51,153 nucleotides of DNA from a virus (Duplodnaviria; Heunggongvirae; Uroviricota; Caudoviricetes). Position numbers and translations under genes: made by a program. The stretch lies in IMG/VR virus record IMGVR_UViG_637000105_000004; one strand, given 5' to 3'. Within the stretch, counting starts at the first letter, position 1, and each line of letters starts with the position of its first letter. The notes beneath the pieces were generated by a model. The model worked only from the letters and a program-made list of their open reading frames with translations, was not told the origin of the DNA and searched no databases. This document shows, in pieces, positions 698-50,076 of the stretch.

Positions 698-1060
698 GGG
701 GCTGATTCTGGATTCGACGGGATTTGCGAAACCCAAGGTGCATGCCGAGGGGCGGTTGGCCTCGTAAAAAGCCGCAAAAAATAGTCGCAAACGACGAAAA
801 CTACGCTTTAGCAGCTTAATAACCTGCTTAGAGCCCTCTCTCCCTAGCCTCCGCTCTTAGGACGGGGATCAAGAGAGGTCAAACCCAAAAGAGATCGCGT
901 GGAAGCCCTGCCTGGGGTTGAAGCGTTAAAACTTAATCAGGCTAGTTTGTTAGTGGCGTGTCCGTCCACAGCTGGCAAGCGAATGTAAAGACTAACTAAG
1001 CATGTAGTACCGAGGATGTAGAAATTTCGGACGCGGGTTCAACTCCCGCCAGCTCCACCA
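698..1060 (+). ncRNA. ssrA: tmRNA (SsrA), 363 nt
   Basis: Starts GGGGCTGATTCTGGATTCGACGGG, contains tag-coding region, ends with tRNA-like GGTTCAACTCCCGCCAGCTCCACCA; near-identical to E. coli ssrA from memory. Confidence 0.96.
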
Positions 1061-1065
1061 ATCAT
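1034..1065. repeat. attL core: 32-bp ssrA 3'-end sequence, exact direct repeat of 49466-49497
   Basis: cgggttcaactcccgccagctccaccaatcat occurs at both positions; about 150 bp of diverged (~80-85% identical) homology follows each copy. Confidence 0.75.
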
Positions 1066-1188
1066 AATTGCTCGGTGTAAGGACAGCACCAACAAAAACA
1101 GGATGTTAGCAGTCTCAGCAGGACCAGGGCCAGGCGGTGAAGGGACAAAAAAGGATACGCAAAGGAGCCGCGGCTCTTTAGTTACATG

Positions 1189-1217
1189 AAAGCCCGCTAA
1201 TGCGGGCTTTTTTTATG
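1189..1217 (+). terminator. Rho-independent terminator downstream of ssrA
   Basis: aaagcccgc-taa-tgcgggcttt hairpin followed by T-run. Confidence 0.75.
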
Positions 1218-1228
1218 GGATAAGACAT

Positions 1229-2149
1229 ATGAACCAACTGCAAGAAATCATTCAGATACTAAGTACTGGTGATGAAGGCACAACAAATGCTCTCATAAAA
1301 ACGAAGATCCTTCTTTTCTCTATCGGGAAAAAGGAGCTTGCTGCATGGGTAAATCATGAGATAAACGGTTATCCTGATTCAGTTTCCCTTCCAGATTATA
1401 GAATTGTTGGCACAAGAATTCTTGCAGATCTGAATAACGGCGTTCGCCTATATAGAGCTTTTCCGTTACCGATTGGTTATCTAAGTGAAGATGACTATGA
1501 AGATGCTACAACCAGTAATGTGAGGCTTTCAATCAGTCAAATCGAAGAACTAGTGACCAATGCTGGTGATAGCCATGCTCTTCAGCAGCCAATTCCTTTA
1601 GATTACGCGTTAGTTAAGTACTGCAAAGGTATCGATAAAGGCTATGAGTTAACACGCTGTTATAAAGAGATCGCACTACATAACTTTACTTCCATCTTAA
1701 CTCAGGTCAGGTCACGGCTACTTGATTTTATACTTGAACTTTCTGATCAAGTTTCTGAAATACCAGATGAGAAAAACATGACAGAAAAACTTAAAAATAT
1801 CGACACGTCTTCATTATTCCATAACTCAATTTTTGGAGACAATACTGTCATAAACTTCGGAAATGAAAACTCATTTTCTGTGAATAACCACGTCGTAAAA
1901 AACGACACTGAGTCATTAAAAGAGTTTCTCTCAGCTCAGGGGTTCCCTAAATCTGATGTTAACGATTTAGAAATTGCTATTGGTGAAGATGGCCCGATAG
2001 CTAACAAACGTGGTGAATATGGTCAATCTGTTAGTAAATGGTTGGCAAATATTGCGAGTAAAGCAGCCCATGGTACTTTGGGCATAGGAATAGCTGCTGC
2101 AACTCAAGCAGCTACAGCGGCTCTGAAAAAATACTACGGTCTATCATAA
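1229..2149 (+). CDS. Hypothetical protein, 306 aa, AT-rich cargo gene; helical N-terminal region, Asn/Ser-rich linker, C-terminal Gly/Ala-rich amphipathic segment (candidate Abi-like effector)
   Basis: Clean ORF with atypical AT-rich composition; C-terminus GTLGIGIAAATQAATAALKKYYGLS looks like a small-residue membrane-interacting helix; no confident family assignment. Confidence 0.7.
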   Translation: MNQLQEIIQILSTGDEGTTNALIKTKILLFSIGKKELAAWVNHEINGYPDSVSLPDYRIVGTRILADLNNGVRLYRAFPLPIGYLSEDDYEDATTSNVRLSISQIEELVTNAGDSHALQQPIPLDYALVKYCKGIDKGYELTRCYKEIALHNFTSILTQVRSRLLDFILELSDQVSEIPDEKNMTEKLKNIDTSSLFHNSIFGDNTVINFGNENSFSVNNHVVKNDTESLKEFLSAQGFPKSDVNDLEIAIGEDGPIANKRGEYGQSVSKWLANIASKAAHGTLGIGIAAATQAATAALKKYYGLS

Positions 2150-2156
2150 CCATCAT

Positions 2157-2198
2157 GGGGTGTCGGGGGTCGGAGGTTCAAATCCTCTCGTGCCGACA
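2157..2198 (+). other. tRNA-Pro 3' fragment (T-arm plus acceptor 3' strand, no CCA); probable relic attachment site
   Basis: ggggtgtcgggggtcggaggttcaaatcctctcgtgccgac closely matches the 3' half of E. coli tRNA-Pro (proM/proL type) from memory; no 5' half is present. Confidence 0.6.
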
Positions 2199-2212
2199 AA
2201 AAATCCCTTAAG

Positions 2213-2240
2213 AACCAGCCTATTATGGCTGGTTTTTTTA
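2213..2240 (+). terminator. Putative Rho-independent terminator
   Basis: aaccagcc-tatta-tggctggtt hairpin followed by ttttttt. Confidence 0.55.
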
Positions 2241-2440
2241 TGATTGTTTTTTATGCGGAGAAATACCGGGGAATAATTGGGGTAAAACACCTTTAGGCTA
2301 TTCACTTAGCCTACCACCATCAAAATCTTTCCGAATGTATCCATCTCTTTTTTCTTATGCAGCTAAAACGAAGTCTTGATACTGTTTATTTACACAGATA
2401 AGAATAATACTGTCTACAAACGCAGTACAAAAGAAGTGTT

Positions 2441-2688
2441 ATGCGTATTGAGATCTCCATAGCCAAAGACAAAATGACCAAATGCCAAACGGTGCTGTGG
2501 ATGCGTTAAAGGAAGAATTAACTCGACGCATCAGTAAGCGTTATGACGATGTAGAGGTGATCGTAAAAGCCACCAGCAACGATGGCCTTTCTGTTACGCG
2601 CACCGCCGATAAAGATTCAGCTAAAACTTTTGTTCAGGAAACTCTGAAAGATACCTGGGAGTCTGCTGACGAGTGGTTTGTTCACTAA
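2441..2688 (+). pseudogene. dinI-like gene with apparent frameshift
   Basis: ATG at 2441 encodes [13 protein letters not shown] (DinI-like N-terminus) and stops after 22 codons; the +1 frame from 2482 encodes the rest, ending [16 protein letters not shown] (DinI-like C-terminus). Confidence 0.55.
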
Positions 2689-3114
2689 TTAACACGTAAA
2701 ATCGGTAACGGCTGGAAATCATTCAATACTCGCACTATCGGAAGTTCACCAGCCAACCGCAGCACGTTCTTGCATACGACGTGTCTGCGGTTTTTCAACC
2801 ATTTAGATACAGCACTCTCATCGCATTCATTCTTCCGCATTAAAGTATATATGACCATATCACCTTAATATTTTTCTTCTTCAGATAAAAATTGTTATCT
2901 ATGTATACTTTTAAACCGAATCCGTGTAGAGTCTCTACCTAAGTTAGTTCACAGTTACCCCTTCAGTTTGCGCCATTAACCTCCTGACTTTTGCCGCTAT
3001 CTGTAAGCATTCCTGTATACCTGAAACTACAGGGGTCATCTACGAACTTTAAGAACACCCAGGATAAAAATTGTCAACTATATTATATATAACACCATAC
3101 TAATTCGAGGTTAT

Positions 3115-43129: not shown

Positions 43130-43560
43130 AGTCATCCAGATTAGCCGAATCCTTGTTGTTGGGGAATAACCAGGCCCACCTCGCCTGATGTGGCTAAAAG
43201 CAGGCACATAACAGCTAAGTATTTTCAACCAGAGAGAATCCTTAGCGTTGTGGTGAATGCGGCTCAGCGCACGCGGGTTAAGGTTGAGGCTGACAGTCGA
43301 CCTTCTGTGGATACCCACCCGCCTGGTGTGCAACCTTCGCCAGGCACCGGGAGGCCCCGGCACCACAACTTTATGCTGTGTGTAGTCCTGGCGGTACCAG
43401 CTTGTACCCTTGCTTCCGGCTGGTACCGCTCTTTTTACAAAACAGAGAAGAGCATCACCGGACGACGGGCTCATAACCCAATCCACCCGGGCGGCTGCCA
43501 CCGCAGGTGTTCTTCTCTGTTTTGTGGAGAAACCAACCGACCTTGCAGGGTCGATATGAT
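43130..43560 (+). other. GC-rich, highly structured non-coding segment (candidate cis-acting RNA or ncRNA)
   Basis: No credible protein in any frame despite open frames; perfect 15-bp long-range inverted repeat 43437-43451 / 43511-43525 and several local hairpins. Confidence 0.45.
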
Positions 43561-43573
43561 GAGGAGCAGCAAA

Positions 43574-43936
43574 ATGGCTAGCGAACGCAGTACCAACGTG
43601 CAGGAATTTATCGGGGAGCTGGACGGCGGCGTATTTGAAACCAAAATCGGCGCAGTTCTCAGTGAAGTCGCTTCCGGTGTGATGAACACGAAAACCAAAG
43701 GTAAGGTCTCGCTCAACCTGGAAATCGAACCGTTTGATGAGAACCGTGTGAAAATAAAACACAAACTCTCATATGTTCGTCCGACTAACCGCGGGAAAAT
43801 TTCCGAAGAAGACACCACCGAAACGCCGATGTATGTCAATCGCGGTGGTCGCCTGACTATTCTGCAGGAAGACCAGGGACAATTACTGACTCTTGCCGGT
43901 GAACCTGACGGAAAACTCCGCGCAGCAGGTCATTAA
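43574..43936 (+). CDS. YfdP-like protein (120 aa)
   Basis: AGGAG Shine-Dalgarno 9 nt upstream of ATG; followed by YfdQ- and YfdR-like genes as in CPS-53. Confidence 0.65.
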   Translation: MASERSTNVQEFIGELDGGVFETKIGAVLSEVASGVMNTKTKGKVSLNLEIEPFDENRVKIKHKLSYVRPTNRGKISEEDTTETPMYVNRGGRLTILQEDQGQLLTLAGEPDGKLRAAGH

Positions 43937-44001
43937 TATCGTTCTTAATTAACTGATTATTTATCTCATCACTGAATATCTTTATATAGTGAGGACTTAT
44001 T

Positions 44002-44826
44002 ATGTCTCAGAACTTAGACGCAACCGCAATTAATCAAATCCATGCCCTTATTTCTGCTCAGGGTGTTAATGAAATTATCAGTAAGATTGGTGCCGACGCA
44101 GTGGCATTACCTGAAAATTTCCGCATTCATGATCTGGAAAAATTTAATTTAAATCGCTTCCGTTTCCGTGGTGCGCTTTCCACTGCCAGCATCGATGACT
44201 TTACCCGTTATTCTAAAGATCTTGCGGATGAAGGCACCCGCTGCTTTATCGATGCCGATAATATGCGTGCCGTCAGTGTGCTTAACCTGGGTACTATTGA
44301 TGAGCCTGGTCACGCAGATAACACCGCCACTCTCAAACTGAAAAAGACAGCACCGTTCTCTGCTCTGTTGTCTGTTAACGGCGAGCGTAACTCCCAGAAG
44401 TCACTGGCAGAATGGATTGAAGACTGGGCCGACTACCTTGTGGGCTTTGATGCTAATGGTGATGCCATTCAGGCAACAAAAGCGGCTGCGGCAGTCCGTA
44501 AAATCACGATTGAAGCAAACCAGACCGCTGATTTTGAAGACAATGACTTCAGCGGCAAACGCTCCCTGATGGAGTCTGTCGAAGCGAAGACCAAAGATAT
44601 TATGCCAGTGGCATTTGAATTTAAATGCGTTCCGTTTGAAGGCCTGAAAGAACGTCCGTTTAAATTACGCCTCAGCATTATCACTGGCGATCGTCCTGTA
44701 CTGGTTCTGCGCATTATTCAGCTGGAAGCAGTGCAGGAAGAAATGGCTAACGAATTTCGTGATCTGCTTGTTGAGAAATTCAAGGACAGCAAAGTAGAAA
44801 CCTTTATTGGTACTTTTACCGCCTGA
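44002..44826 (+). CDS. YfdQ-like protein (DUF2303-like, 274 aa)
   Basis: Length and neighbourhood match YfdQ from memory. Confidence 0.7.
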
Positions 44827-44953
44827 TTTCATTACTGCAAATGCCCCTGCGGGGGCATTTATGGAAACGTAATTGACTCAATAATCGCCGGATGGTGAGG
44901 GCTTTCTTTTACCAGAATTCAGCGCGGTGCAGCGCATATACGTGGAGAACAAA

Positions 44954-45478
44954 ATGTCATTTATTAAAACTTTTTCCGGGAAGCATTTTTATTATGACAG
45001 GATAAATAAAGACGACATCGTTATTAACGATATCGCGGTTTCTCTTTCAAATATCTGTCGCTTTGCAGGACATCTTTCACATTTCTACAGCGTCGCCCAA
45101 CATGCGGTGCTTTGCAGCCAACTGGTACCGCAGGAATTTGCTTTTGAAGCGTTAATGCATGATGCAACAGAAGCGCATTGCCAGGACATCCCGGCGCCAC
45201 TGAAACGCCTTCTTCCTGACTATAAACGGATGGAAGAAAAAATAGACGCCGTAATCCGTGAGAAATACGGGTTACCCCCGGTTATGAGTACGCCCGTGAA
45301 ATATGCCGATCTCATCATGCTGGCAACCGAACGCCGCGATCTCGGGCTTGATGATGGCTCTTTCTGGCCCGTACTGGAAGGTATCCCGGCAACAGAGATG
45401 TTCAAAGTTATTCCACTGTCGCCAGGCCATACCTATGGGATGTTTATGGAACGCTTTAAAGAGTTAACTGAGTCGTAA
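44954..45478 (+). CDS. HD-domain phosphohydrolase (YfdR-like, about 174 aa)
   Basis: H...HD metal-binding pattern (HLSHFYSVAQHAV; MHDATEAH). Confidence 0.7.
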   Translation: MSFIKTFSGKHFYYDRINKDDIVINDIAVSLSNICRFAGHLSHFYSVAQHAVLCSQLVPQEFAFEALMHDATEAHCQDIPAPLKRLLPDYKRMEEKIDAVIREKYGLPPVMSTPVKYADLIMLATERRDLGLDDGSFWPVLEGIPATEMFKVIPLSPGHTYGMFMERFKELTES

Positions 45479-45586
45479 AAATCAGCACGTACGAATTCAA
45501 ACTCTGCCATAAAAGAACATATAAGTAATTTATTAACATATAGATATAGGTTATATTACAAATTGAAAAATTATTGGAGAGCAACA

Positions 45587-46453
45587 ATGAATCAAAATCC
45601 ATTCTCATTCTATGACTTTCTTGGATATTTAATACCAGGTGGTTTTTTTATCCTATTAATGTATTTCTGTGGTTTGACATTCGATCTAGATATTGTTATT
45701 GACTTAAGTGAATTGCTCAGAGGTCAAAGTCAAATCTTTGGCATTTTGAACTACGCTTCAATAGTTATTATATCTTATATAGCTGGACATTTTATTTCTA
45801 TCACATCAGCATTTTTTATCGAAAAATACATGAATAAAGAATTAGGATATCCTTCCAAATATCTATTTAAAAAATTGATAGATACCTCAGAAAGCATTTG
45901 TAGCCCATCATGCGATGAGAGAAGCGCTGATAAAAAAACAAAAATAAAGAATCGCATAATCAAATGCGTATTATGTCCAATAATACTATGGGATTTTATA
46001 ACACAAAAACTATGTTATTCTCAATCTCTACCATTTCATTTAGCTAATACAACATGGTTAATGATCAAAGAAGGTTATGAGAAAAAGTTCATAACAAATC
46101 GCCAATTATTACAAGATAAAAACGGACTTGATGATGATCTCTTCAGATTGGCATATCATTATGTTTATGAGTTTTCAAAACAACATCAAACAAAAATTCA
46201 AAACTATGTTGCATTATATGGTTTTTGCAGAAACATATGTTTAATCTTTATAATTTCATTTTGGGTATCAGTTCCAACCTTTATTTATCGATTATGTACT
46301 CATAGTGATTATCTTTATAGTTTACTTTCAATAATGCTTAGCTTTTTCTTCGTCTATGTTTTCTATGTTGGTTTTGTTAAATTTTATAGAAGATATACTT
46401 TAGAAGTATTAATGGCATTTGCTGTACTTCAAAGTAACGACACTATTCGTTAA
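45587..46453 (+). CDS. AT-rich integral membrane protein (about 288 aa, 4 predicted TM helices)
   Basis: GGAGAG Shine-Dalgarno 5 nt upstream of ATG; two TM helices at each end flanking a soluble middle; very low GC. Confidence 0.7.
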   Translation: MNQNPFSFYDFLGYLIPGGFFILLMYFCGLTFDLDIVIDLSELLRGQSQIFGILNYASIVIISYIAGHFISITSAFFIEKYMNKELGYPSKYLFKKLIDTSESICSPSCDERSADKKTKIKNRIIKCVLCPIILWDFITQKLCYSQSLPFHLANTTWLMIKEGYEKKFITNRQLLQDKNGLDDDLFRLAYHYVYEFSKQHQTKIQNYVALYGFCRNICLIFIISFWVSVPTFIYRLCTHSDYLYSLLSIMLSFFFVYVFYVGFVKFYRRYTLEVLMAFAVLQSNDTIR

Positions 46454-46494
46454 TAATGTTGCTCCCGTGTGCAGACGGGATAATGGAGAAACGT

Positions 46495-46701
46495 ATGCTG
46501 AACCTCGATTGTGTTCCTATCTCAACTTATTGCAAAGAAACTGGCGAAACTCCTGAAGCAATAAACAAACGTGTACAGCGCGGTGTTTGGCGTGAAGGTG
46601 TTCAGGTTTTAAAGGTTGAAGGCGTTAAGGAGAGGTGGATTGATCTTAGTGAGGTTGCAAAATGGGCCAGACAAAACTGCTCAAACTACCGCGCGGCGTA
46701 A
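46495..46701 (+). CDS. xis: Putative excisionase (Xis-like, 68 aa)
   Basis: Small basic DNA-binding-like ORF immediately upstream of and overlapping int; GGAG Shine-Dalgarno. Confidence 0.55.
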   Translation: MLNLDCVPISTYCKETGETPEAINKRVQRGVWREGVQVLKVEGVKERWIDLSEVAKWARQNCSNYRAA

Positions 46702-47834
46702 CAATCAGGAAACACCACCAGGGAGAAACGATCAATATAACTTTCACCTACAAAGGAGTTAGATGTCGTGAGCCGCTTTCCAATCTGGAAGTAACACCAA
46801 AGAACATTAAATACGCCGAGCGTACACTCGGCGAAATCCATAATAAGATCGAAAGGGGAACATTCATTTATGCAGAATATTTTCCCCGTTCTGCTCGTTT
46901 GAAAATTTTTGGTAATGCTGCTGCAAGCAAAACGGTAAAGATGTACCTAGACGAATATCTTGAAATCTGCGAAACAAGAAAACTTTCACCCTCTACGATT
47001 GGTGGCTATAAAAAATGCCGTAGTGCGTTAGCCTCACTTCACATTTGCCCTGCAAGTGAATTAACACCAGCAACCCTGAAAGCGTGGATTCAAAGCCAGA
47101 AAACAACCTTAAAAACCATTCGCAACCAGTTATCTTTCCTACGGTCAGCACTTGATGAAGCCGTGACCGATGGGGTACTTCAAATTAACCCCGTATCGTT
47201 AGTAACAGCTTCGCGCTACCAAAGTGATAAGTCAGAAGCAGAAAGCAGCTATGTGGTTGATCCGCTATCACCAGCAGAAGTTGATGCATTACTAGCAGCA
47301 GCCGGAAACAAACAATGGGAAAATCTGTTCCGGTTCGCCATACATACAGGCCTGCGTAGTTCTGAATTATGTGCCCTACGATGGCATGATATCGACTTTG
47401 TTGGAAAAACAGCCCATGTTCAGAGCGCAAGTGTTGTCGGAGTTATCAAAGGAACAAAGACAAAAGCCGGTACCCGTAAAGTTGAACTGACTGAAGAAGC
47501 AATGTTGGCGTTGATAAACCAGAAGCCATTTACATTCATGAAGGATGCTACTGTCTTTGAAGATCCAAAGACCAATAAACCCTGGACAAGTGCTGATGCA
47601 ATCAGGAAAAAAGCATGGGTGCCAACATTGCGAAAAGCAGGTATTCGTTACAGAAATCCATATCAAACTAGGCATACATTCGCCACCCGCCATATCAGCC
47701 GGGGAGCAAACCTGTTTTGGCTTGCAGCTCAAATGGGGCATAAAGGGCCGGAAATGTTATTTCGTCATTATGGTTCATATTTAAAGGAATATGACGGTAA
47801 TACGACCAGCAATATCACAAAAAAAGCCACTTAA
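46662..47834 (+). CDS. int: Tyrosine site-specific integrase (390 aa)
   Basis: N-terminal arm-binding type motif LPRGVTIRK...TFTYKGVRCRE; C-terminal catalytic region with R...HxxR...Y (RHTFATRHISRGANLFWLAAQMGHKGPEMLFRHYGSY). Confidence 0.92.
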   Translation: MGQTKLLKLPRGVTIRKHHQGETINITFTYKGVRCREPLSNLEVTPKNIKYAERTLGEIHNKIERGTFIYAEYFPRSARLKIFGNAAASKTVKMYLDEYLEICETRKLSPSTIGGYKKCRSALASLHICPASELTPATLKAWIQSQKTTLKTIRNQLSFLRSALDEAVTDGVLQINPVSLVTASRYQSDKSEAESSYVVDPLSPAEVDALLAAAGNKQWENLFRFAIHTGLRSSELCALRWHDIDFVGKTAHVQSASVVGVIKGTKTKAGTRKVELTEEAMLALINQKPFTFMKDATVFEDPKTNKPWTSADAIRKKAWVPTLRKAGIRYRNPYQTRHTFATRHISRGANLFWLAAQMGHKGPEMLFRHYGSYLKEYDGNTTSNITKKAT

Positions 47835-47847
47835 GTGGCTTTATCAA

Positions 47848-48231
47848 TTAGGAGGCTCTCGATTTAAGCATTTCCGTACACTTAGCAAAGAGCCTCTCAG
47901 TTGTTAGAATCGCAACTTCAGACTGTTTAGAAGTGACCGATTGATCAAGTCGATAGTCTGCAACAATCCTCTGAGCTTTAAGTTGACTCAGGATAAAACT
48001 AATCCCTTTTAGATATCTAGCTTCATATACTTCACTTCCTCTTGAAGCATCACCCTGCAAATAATTGATTAGCCCCTGATGACTGTCTTTCGGCCCGTTT
48101 ACCATACAAGGCAAGACATGATGGTAAGCGCCATAGTAGGATCTTGCTATAGCATTTCGATAGCCGATTTCGTCATTACGTTGATGACAGTCTTTTGCAA
48201 AACCGAGAAAATCTTGACTATTAACCGGCAT
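47848..48231 (-). CDS. Small AT-rich cargo protein (127 aa), possible HEPN-like domain
   Basis: GGAGGG Shine-Dalgarno 7 nt upstream of ATG at 48231; motif RSYYGAYHH fits Rx4-6H; second gene of a two-gene cassette. Confidence 0.6.
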   Translation of the reverse strand: MPVNSQDFLGFAKDCHQRNDEIGYRNAIARSYYGAYHHVLPCMVNGPKDSHQGLINYLQGDASRGSEVYEARYLKGISFILSQLKAQRIVADYRLDQSVTSKQSEVAILTTERLFAKCTEMLKSRAS

Positions 48232-49036
48232 GTGCAACCCTCCGGGTAATCAGACCTAATTCGGAGATAGCATTCTGCTCAATATGAGTGTCTTTACATT
48301 CAAACCAAACAGTAAAATCTTTACCGACTAAACAATCGTGCTCAGCCATTGAAAAAGCAAGCTCAATATTCATATCAGCGATTTGTTCAGCATCAGAAGA
48401 CTTTGTCATGAATACAATCGCATTCACTTTCTCTTCCGAAATATTATAAAAACGCATTCCCGAAAGATGAACCTTCTGAGAATCCATGACATTGGCTACA
48501 TTATTGAAAATAAGTTCATATTCTAAACCAGAAAGATCGGCACGTTGCTTAAAGGATTCGACCTGGGAAACAACTTCATCAAAATTGTTGTCCATTTTTT
48601 CAGGCTCCTTATCTCCGAACAATTTAGAGTATGACTGGAAATACTTCTCCGCCAACGCCATTTTCCCCATAAAGAGGGAGTTTTCATAAGCTTGAAGATA
48701 AATAAACGGGGATACGAAGCTTTCAGCAAGCTTAATGCTTGTTTCAAAGCTTTTCTTCAACGTACCGTAATCTGACAAGAAAACAAGAAAATTCTTTGCA
48801 ACAACCTTATTATGGCATACCTGCAAGGAACGCTCAAAGAAGCCTATCGCCTCATTCACTTGACCATGTGCACCATAGACCAACGCTAAAAGATAGTCCT
48901 CAGAGACAGGATCTCTAAGTGCTTCAATCTCACGTAACATCCTTCTAAAGTTAAAGTCATCAATCCTCACTCCATCTTTGAGGTATTTAGTTAGCCCCGC
49001 GCTAATAACTGATGCTTTTTTTGCTGGCTGCAACAT
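48221..49036 (-). CDS. AT-rich cargo protein (271 aa) with TPR-like helical N-terminal region
   Basis: First gene of two-gene cassette between int and attR; 8-bp gap to downstream gene; no family recognised. Confidence 0.65.
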   Translation of the reverse strand: MLQPAKKASVISAGLTKYLKDGVRIDDFNFRRMLREIEALRDPVSEDYLLALVYGAHGQVNEAIGFFERSLQVCHNKVVAKNFLVFLSDYGTLKKSFETSIKLAESFVSPFIYLQAYENSLFMGKMALAEKYFQSYSKLFGDKEPEKMDNNFDEVVSQVESFKQRADLSGLEYELIFNNVANVMDSQKVHLSGMRFYNISEEKVNAIVFMTKSSDAEQIADMNIELAFSMAEHDCLVGKDFTVWFECKDTHIEQNAISELGLITRRVAHAG

Positions 49037-49465
49037 TAAAAACCTTATCTTACAAATAGTTGGTAATGATGTTGAATTATTTTTTGTTCTTTATGGCTAA
49101 TAAGATTACATGAAGGGACAACTTCTGGCCACCTTAGAAAACACTCACTTTAGTAACAAGAGTCAATAATATTGTTGACAAATCACAAAAAAACAAACTT
49201 ATCCAAAACAATCTGGTTTATTACAAAGCCTCTGTGCATAAATCTGTGTATAACATCATTTTTACACACATTTTTATAAAAATATTTTTTAGCAAAAAAT
49301 GCTATCTATCTCCGAAACTGCAACCACAAACCATTAATTCCAAATGAAACTATTTTAAAATAAATAGTAAGACAGTAACAGGACGGAAAAAGTTCCGCAA
49401 AAGAGCCGCGTGTAAAATCAACAATATTTGGCTATTTAAATTCAATGAATTACATAACTATGGAC

Positions 49466-49497
49466 ACGGGTTCAACTCCCGCCAGCTCCACCAATCA
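49466..49497. repeat. attR core: displaced copy of the ssrA 3' end (direct repeat of 1034-1065)
   Basis: 32-bp exact match to the ssrA 3' end, followed by ~150 bp of diverged ssrA-downstream homology. Confidence 0.75.
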
Positions 49498-49620
49498 TGA
49501 TTGGACGGTGTAAGGACTACACCAACAAAAACAGGAAGTTATAAGTCTCAGCAGGACACCGACCAGACGGTGAGGAGACAAAAAAGGATACGCAACGGAG
49601 TCGCGACTCCCTATGACATT

Positions 49621-49649
49621 AAAGCCCGCTGATGCGGGCTTTTTTATTG
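49621..49649 (+). terminator. Terminator-like hairpin homologous to the ssrA terminator
   Basis: aaagcccgctgatgcgggctttttta. Confidence 0.6.
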
Positions 49650-50076
49650 GTCCTGACCCGCCCTGAATAGAATTCATCCAATTACAGTCCAGACATATAC
49701 AGTATCCCTCAGCTCAGTATCAGCTTCTCGACAAATGGTCACTGTTATTTACCCGTTGCCAGAAAGAGAATAATTTGCCCCCATAGCCAGCCTTCCTGGA
49801 ATCTGTATATTCATTAATATTGTTATCGATTCCATCAAGTAACATAGGTTGGATGCGATTGATCTTACTCACATTAGTCGACACGGAACTCAGTAAGTTG
49901 AACTCTGAAAAAGCAGTTTAAATAGCATTTAAACAAATGCCACCAGTTCGAAAAAGAGTATAAGCACACTTAATATATTGTTTTAATTATTCATTTCCTT
50001 TCAACCCAATTCTTATCCCTCACATTATTTGTTATTAATTTGTTGTTTTTGATCACAATAAGAAAACAATATGTAA

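Follow-up and report, generated by a model that had tools for sequence, protein, structure and literature searches.

A relic of proL inside an ssrA-integrated Escherichia coli prophage, probably the fossil attachment site of a proL-integrating lambdoid phage

Why does the 3′ part of a proline tRNA gene lie inside a prophage that is integrated in another RNA gene? The question is raised by a 51,153-nt stretch of viral DNA (IMG/VR record IMGVR_UViG_637000105_000004), referred to here in its full length as the window. From the letters of the window alone, the original prediction had described a 42-nt match to the 3′ half of tRNA-Pro (2157-2198) following a 306-amino-acid gene, had interpreted it as the footprint of an integrase attachment site, and had proposed a composite history for the prophage, by exchange of the att/int module or by tandem integration. 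We compared this locus with related prophages, free phages, and native tRNA loci.

The window begins with smpB (1-483) and ssrA, the tmRNA gene (698-1060, plus strand; called by ARAGORN and by Rfam tmRNA at 289 bits), and corresponds almost entirely to the smpB-ssrA region of E. coli CFT073 (99-100% identity). The last 32 nt of ssrA (1029-1060) recur with one mismatch at 49462-49493; these are the only two copies of the ssrA 3′ repeat in the window, one at each prophage end. A tyrosine integrase gene (46662-47834, plus strand; Pfam Arm-DNA-bind_2 and Phage_integrase) reads toward the second repeat and adjoins attR. Since the ssrA 3′ end is repeated at both ends and the integrase faces one of them, we conclude that a prophage of ~48 kb sits integrated in ssrA. 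The repeat extends ~155 nt past the tmRNA gene, over 1061-1214 on the left and 49494-49650 on the right, and includes a terminator hairpin. The two flank copies are diverged yet clearly alignable (mean column identity of 87% over four aligned sequences). Because both flank and terminator are duplicated at attL and attR, the phage must supply its own ssrA 3′ end, 3′ flank, and terminator; the phage copy now forms attL, where ssrA is rebuilt, and the host original stands at attR. The phage-borne arm thus spans 1029-1214 (plus strand), ends in a hairpin and T-run, and is common to the UTI89 prophage up to 1213, while the displaced host 3′ end with its flank and terminator spans 49462-49650 (plus strand).

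Several small genes accompany this integrase. Upstream, at 45563-46701 (plus strand), the open reading frame (ORF) list gives a 296-amino-acid membrane protein and an 81-amino-acid ORF that overlaps the start of int and is a putative excisionase by position; both go with int in UTI89-type genomes. The 296-amino-acid predicted membrane protein (45563-46453) directly follows yfdR and has a weak PADLOC match to a Csx27-like protein (E = 1.4e-5); a Pfam search assigned it no family. Between int and the att core, two cargo genes of 129 and 271 amino acids (47848-49036, minus strand) occupy a second variable slot. The 129-amino-acid ORF has a weak PADLOC HEPN_IX match (E = 1.4e-3) and overlaps the 271-amino-acid ORF, which has no family match. 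The integrase was found in 435 E. coli genomes, and the pair of cargo genes in only 42.

The tRNA fragment itself comes from proL. In alignments to K-12 tRNA genes, of the kind that the original prediction had suggested, the fragment matched proL (tRNA-Pro GGG, between yejM and yejO), of which the window holds tRNA positions 26/27-76 at 2149-2199 (plus strand). Window 2149-2197 is identical at 48 of 49 positions to the intact proL of E. coli NC19 (NZ_CP076654; proL positions 26-74), and the one mismatch is a change of G29 to A at 2152. At native proL loci in thousands of genomes, the resemblance to window 2149-2241 is 87-89% and continues through the terminator hairpin. Tried as the source, proM has only a 34-nt T-arm stretch in common, at 88%, and the alignment gives proL. 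These alignments covered proL and proM, and for proK the exclusion is based solely on where the native match sits, between yejM and yejO. A chance or low-complexity match has a negligible probability and is already refuted: the 41-mer at 2157-2197 is exact, occurs once in the window, and did not appear in any of 100 dinucleotide-preserving shuffles, and the homology of its flank runs 240 nt further, to a real attL. The match to tRNA-Pro did not turn out to be weak on proper alignment; the fragment is real.

Two details of the fragment differ from what had been described. It had been placed 8 bp after the stop codon of the 306-amino-acid gene, an AbiTii-domain gene. In fact, the homology starts at 2149/2150 (tRNA position 26/27) and abuts the TAA stop (2147-2149) with 0 nt between them. 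It had also been said to have no CCA; the CCA is present and has been changed by one substitution to CAA (2197-2199), and it is kept in the sister copies of UTI89, GF161, and Citrobacter braakii. The reported lack of a 5′ half was confirmed. Local alignment of the 55 nt upstream with proL positions 1-30 was no better than with shuffled sequences (P = 0.59), and on this result we also rejected a 5′ half concealed in the 3′ coding region of the AbiTii gene. No tRNA was predicted at the relic by ARAGORN, nor by Rfam at E values up to 1; with the 5′ half missing there is no complete cloverleaf, as a functional tRNA gene would have. Rfam matches nearby (Leu_leader, STnc50, and CssrB) scored far under their gathering scores and were taken as chance. 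The relic has no annotation in RefSeq. It is followed at 2200-2241 (plus strand) by a copy of the proL terminator, which a terminator scan predicts as an intrinsic terminator with an 11-pair stem (2210-2237) and a T-run.

A search of prophages integrated at tRNA-Pro for the same downstream sequence, also proposed at the outset, was informative. In E. coli NC19, a related but defective prophage occupies the native yejM-proL-yejO locus. After the intact proL, its sequence is 98-100% identical to window 2198-2440 and then reaches a DinI-like gene, so that the block at 2149-2440 (plus strand) corresponds to the NC19 attL junction of intact proL and prophage arm; the same block is the relic block of UTI89, again at 98-100%. 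Two terminator variants are present in NC19: the type found in the window stands behind the intact proL at attL, and the native type has been displaced to attR. Because the window has the attL variant, it holds a phage-borne copy and not a piece of host chromosome. Past yfdR, NC19 continues with an integrase, cargo, and a proL attR of its own, and the integrase is of the proL type by its position beside attR. At that attR (L018, 5103-5180; L020, 793-870), the phage left arm and the host 3′ half together carry the annotation of a second tRNA-Pro, 78 nt long, in which the acceptor stem still pairs along its full length; it follows that the NC19 attP carries a whole tRNA-like sequence.

Free phages carry the same piece. 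In Flotzy (PP925827) and Eeyore (PP925821), a proL fragment lies directly 3′ of the integrase gene, and the order continues with a UmuD-like gene, DinI, an invertase (in Eeyore), and the tail fiber gene. At native proL, prophages of the Flotzy type occur in split form. EC2641 has the attL side, in which yejM and an intact proL are followed by two small genes (UmuD-like in Flotzy), DinI, invertase, and tail fiber genes, the same gene order as downstream of the relic; CX21 has the attR side, with integrase, proL 3′ piece, and yejO in that order. This split indicates that the proL piece is the working attP of proL-integrating phages. The relic sequence thus forms the native tRNA junction in lysogens at the attL of NC19, the attL of EC2641, and the attR of CX21. 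With the same piece serving as attL in NC19 and lying beside the integrase in Flotzy and Eeyore, its interpretation as an attachment-site footprint stands. The ssrA att arm is built alike, from the 3′ end of an RNA gene, its flank, and a terminator, and this likeness supports 2149-2241 as an att arm.

Other elements use this tRNA gene as well. In O111:H8 (TW05614, ST130; L010 / L011), the native proL is occupied by a different, satellite-like island, whose integrase gene immediately follows the tRNA and which also encodes an Icd-like protein and a RepA-family helicase. Thus, proL is a target of at least two unrelated kinds of element. The yejM-tRNAPro-yejO locus has been described as a prophage site in Shigella flexneri 1c, where the gtrIC prophage lies at tRNA-Pro/yejO (PMC4924310). 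Apart from that prophage, our literature searches on the relic, on phages integrating at proL, and on a pseudo-tRNA in Gifsy-2 gave no earlier account.

The window shares with Flotzy, Eeyore, and NC19 the 3′ part of tRNA-Pro(GGG), the style of the phage-borne terminator, and a DinI gene on the right followed by tail fiber genes. The right-side neighbors vary, in that Flotzy and Eeyore have a UmuD-like gene and the invertase is complete only in Eeyore and truncated in NC19. In the window, a frameshifted DinI-like gene (2441-2688, plus strand; Pfam DinI, E = 6.9e-20) is the first gene of the old phage end, which in the CFT073 annotation continues with ynaM, ydfK, an invertase gene, and tail fiber genes. 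The DinI-like ORF from 2482 is 68 amino acids long and is a pseudogene in that annotation. A mosaic breakpoint lies at ~2441, with 98-100% identity to NC19 and UTI89 upstream and 89% downstream, and many further prophages of E. coli are 97% identical from 2376 onwards. In the proL elements, the cognate integrase is either adjacent to the site or at the opposite end of the prophage, accompanied there by another proL repeat; the window has lost cognate integrase, left arm, and partner repeat and has an unrelated ssrA-specific module instead. The only integrase found in it is the ssrA-adjacent one, which is not significantly similar to that of Flotzy, a proL-type enzyme, and the 51 kb contain a single proL piece even when up to three mismatches are allowed.

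Both boundaries of the replaced module are visible in the comparison with NC19. The early region with yfdP-, yfdQ-, and yfdR-like genes (43150-45473, plus strand) is 96.9% identical to that of the NC19 proL prophage, and the homology ends at 45473, the end of yfdR; on the other side, it resumes at 2149/2150. The ssrA-specific module that took the place of the old one would comprise ~45474-49493 plus 1029-1214. Of the two routes to a composite history, exchange of the att/int module is supported by these boundaries, whereas tandem integration is not supported for the structure as it now stands, there being one proL piece and two ssrA repeats. We conclude, with a probability of close to nine in ten, that the relic is a fossil att site, derived from a proL-integrating lambdoid phage whose integrase/att module has been replaced by an ssrA-specific one.

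We infer the order and mechanism of this exchange as follows. Lambdoid phages of the proL type carry the 3′ part of proL, from the anticodon region to the CCA, together with a terminator, and this copy makes proL functional again at attL when they integrate. The window's prophage would descend from such a phage. Its original integrase, its left att arm, and anything between them would later have been replaced by an incoming module of the 296-amino-acid ORF, the putative xis, int, the two cargo genes, and the phage ssrA 3′ end with flank and terminator. The exchange would have taken place by recombination between related phages, homologous on the yfdR side and, at the other end, in or beside the old core. 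What remained in place, before dinI, the invertase gene, and the tail fiber genes, would be the original proL copy and right arm. In the window, the 5′ part of the tRNA, or left arm, has been replaced by AbiTii coding sequence, and the relic now bounds, on the right, a cargo slot of the size of one gene, with AbiTii inside and the ssrA-flank terminator as the left edge. Because cognate integrase, left arm, and partner repeat are all missing, the relic would be inert as an att site.

That slot is smaller than was first thought. The cargo segment had been set at 1066-2156 (~1.1 kb); since the ssrA att arm includes 1061-1214, the true cargo is 1215-2149 (plus strand). Its sole gene is the 306-amino-acid AbiTii-domain gene (ORF 1229-2149; PADLOC AbiTii, E = 4.5e-33). 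Pfam PF18864, a domain associated with abortive infection, matches at 116 bits against a gathering cutoff of 27.6 (E = 3e-33). The cassette is exactly gene-sized, with a 14-nt leader and no 3′ spacer. By its layout, the AbiTii gene is a cassette between two terminators, that of the ssrA flank on the left and that of the relic on the right. Prophages of the UTI89 type, also at ssrA, have 1-1213, 2150-2793, and the int region in common with the window, and between the same anchors UTI89 has a gene with a DpnII/MboI-like restriction endonuclease domain, a small ORF, and a GIY-YIG gene. Cargo thus turns over between the ssrA-arm terminator and the relic. In E. coli 25-07338 (L003, 3903-4000), the AbiTii cassette follows an internal ssrA 3′ repeat and is not beside the full ssrA gene; upstream of that repeat is a piece homologous to window 2696-2793. 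Such an arrangement indicates a tandem array of elements at ssrA.

The position of the relic directly 3′ of the AbiTii stop, with the only terminator-like hairpin downstream of AbiTii inside it, suggests another reading, namely, that it was retained as the terminator or 3′ UTR of the gene and belongs to the gene cassette rather than being an att remnant. The phage-type terminator probably does end AbiTii transcription now. The AbiTii-relic junction is, moreover, the same in strain 3985, which has a second, diverged lambdoid type of ssrA prophage. (A "P2-like" label for that prophage was dropped, the annotated region being of lambdoid siphovirus type with gpJ, Lom, and tfa.) In this respect, the concern that the fragment is a conserved part of the gene's terminator has some substance. 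In 3985, however, the relic itself is ~33% and the hairpin ~25% diverged, a decay at about the neutral rate, beside an intact AbiTii with 93% amino acid identity (dS between the alleles, 0.23), which argues that the gene does not depend on the relic. The block also occurs without AbiTii, in NC19, in the free phages, and in the UTI89-type prophages of more than 100 ExPEC/APEC genomes (99.1% identity over 2150-2380). These contexts largely refute retention as an AbiTii terminator, which we consider very improbable.

Copies of the relic in other prophages bear on how it arose. Strain GF161 has an e14-like prophage at icd with two relic copies (L006, 3822-3914 and 5001-5135). They form a 117-nt direct repeat of 98.3% identity, have different decayed 5′ halves, and enclose one gene of 261 amino acids, for which no family assignment was obtained. 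This double relic looks like the result of insertion at the relic or of cassette exchange through it. A C. braakii prophage also carries the relic. It was the single locus returned when one genome per species was scanned for the exact pattern of relic plus phage-type terminator, a scan that says little about the distribution of the relic; it also turned up no species in which the flank of native proL agrees with the phage-type terminator. Gifsy-2 of Salmonella (L014; NC_010393.1, 44256-44334) has a partial relic comprising the T-arm, the acceptor strand, and the terminator, at 88.6% identity. This partial copy is located ~1.5 kb before the phage record ends, on the side of the effector gene sseI that faces the att site.

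In UTI89, GF161, and C. braakii, the relic is preceded by a decayed 5′ half that has a D-loop insertion. This 5′ half is significant only in C. braakii (P = 0.0005); that of UTI89 is marginal by itself (P = 0.07) and is backed only by its likeness to the C. braakii copy. For Flotzy, Eeyore, and Gifsy-2, the candidates for a decayed 5′ half were not significant and were dropped. The decayed 5′ halves in the sister copies suggest that the ancestral site was more than a minimal attP: probably a complete tRNA-like sequence, or perhaps a captured attL.

An alternative origin is nested integration, in which a proL-type phage entered a proL-like secondary site in an element already resident in ssrA and then lost its integrase end by deletion, so that the relic would be a former attL inside an older element and not the product of a module swap. 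The relic does retain the full block common to the proL attP and attB, from CATGGGG to the 3′ end; the double relic around the 261-amino-acid gene in GF161 is exactly what an insertion at a relic would leave, so that such insertions seem able to happen; and the decayed 5′ halves of UTI89, GF161, and C. braakii are nearer to native proL than to the left arm of Flotzy or NC19. Against this, the window has one proL piece only and no trace of a proL-type integrase, its other boundary is clean at the end of the conserved yfdR (45473), as homologous exchange predicts, and no proL-like target is known to have existed beside ssrA beforehand. We therefore regard nested integration as unlikely and favor replacement of the module.

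One feature fits the fossil reading less well. The 3′ half is unexpectedly well kept in CFT073, UTI89, GF161, and C. braakii, whereas the copy in strain 3985 has ~33% divergence although the AbiTii alleles beside it differ by a dS of only 0.23, and such uneven decay is not predicted for a purely dead fossil. Possible causes are a constraint of some kind and recombination with active proL phages that refreshes the sequence; the latter is the simplest idea for the kept 3′ half. The conserved relic may, in the same vein, serve as a homology patch for module shuffling. A more far-reaching proposal is that the relic, which keeps the whole proL identity block, is used as a landing pad (secondary attB) by the proL-specific integrases of incoming phages and satellites, or else provides a homology patch, and in either way drives the turnover of defense cassettes at prophage ends. 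A live relic would explain why several lineages (prophages at ssrA and icd, and that of C. braakii) combine a near-perfect 3′ half with a decaying 5′ half, why GF161 has a double copy around a single gene, and why homology breakpoints fall exactly at the relic edge. We hold this proposal to be doubtful and give it a low probability.

Remnants of tRNA att sites are a familiar feature of bacterial genomes, among them the E. coli K-12 tRNA pseudogenes pawZ (argW/CPS-53), ptwF (thrW/CP4-6), and pauD (argU/DLP12). Like these, the proL relic is a partial 3′ tRNA copy left by integrase-mediated insertion. Unlike them, displaced host copies as they are at a current attR of the same tRNA's locus, it is a phage-borne copy inside a prophage at another locus (ssrA) and does not match the att now in use. 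In mosaic lambdoid phages, the integrase/att module is exchanged as a unit between related genomes, with boundaries at gene ends. Here, the old core and right arm stayed, and both specificities are legible from one sequence.

Hotspots of defense or "moron" cargo beside prophage att sites are likewise known from P2/P4-like and other temperate phages. The slot described here resembles them in having variable genes with defense-type domains (AbiTii, DpnII/MboI-like restriction endonuclease, and GIY-YIG) between conserved anchors and differs in that one anchor is the fossil att of another specificity; we did not find this att-side cargo slot described in the literature. Footprints of tRNA att sites, module exchange, and att-side defense cargo are all established, so the relic is a further example and reveals no new mechanism. 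What it provides is a clean, datable record of a switch in integration specificity, from proL to ssrA, in a prophage of uropathogenic E. coli. It also corrects the anatomy of this prophage, whose ssrA att arm reaches 1214, and indicates that unannotated tRNA fragments are usable in prophage annotation as markers of module boundaries and cargo slots.
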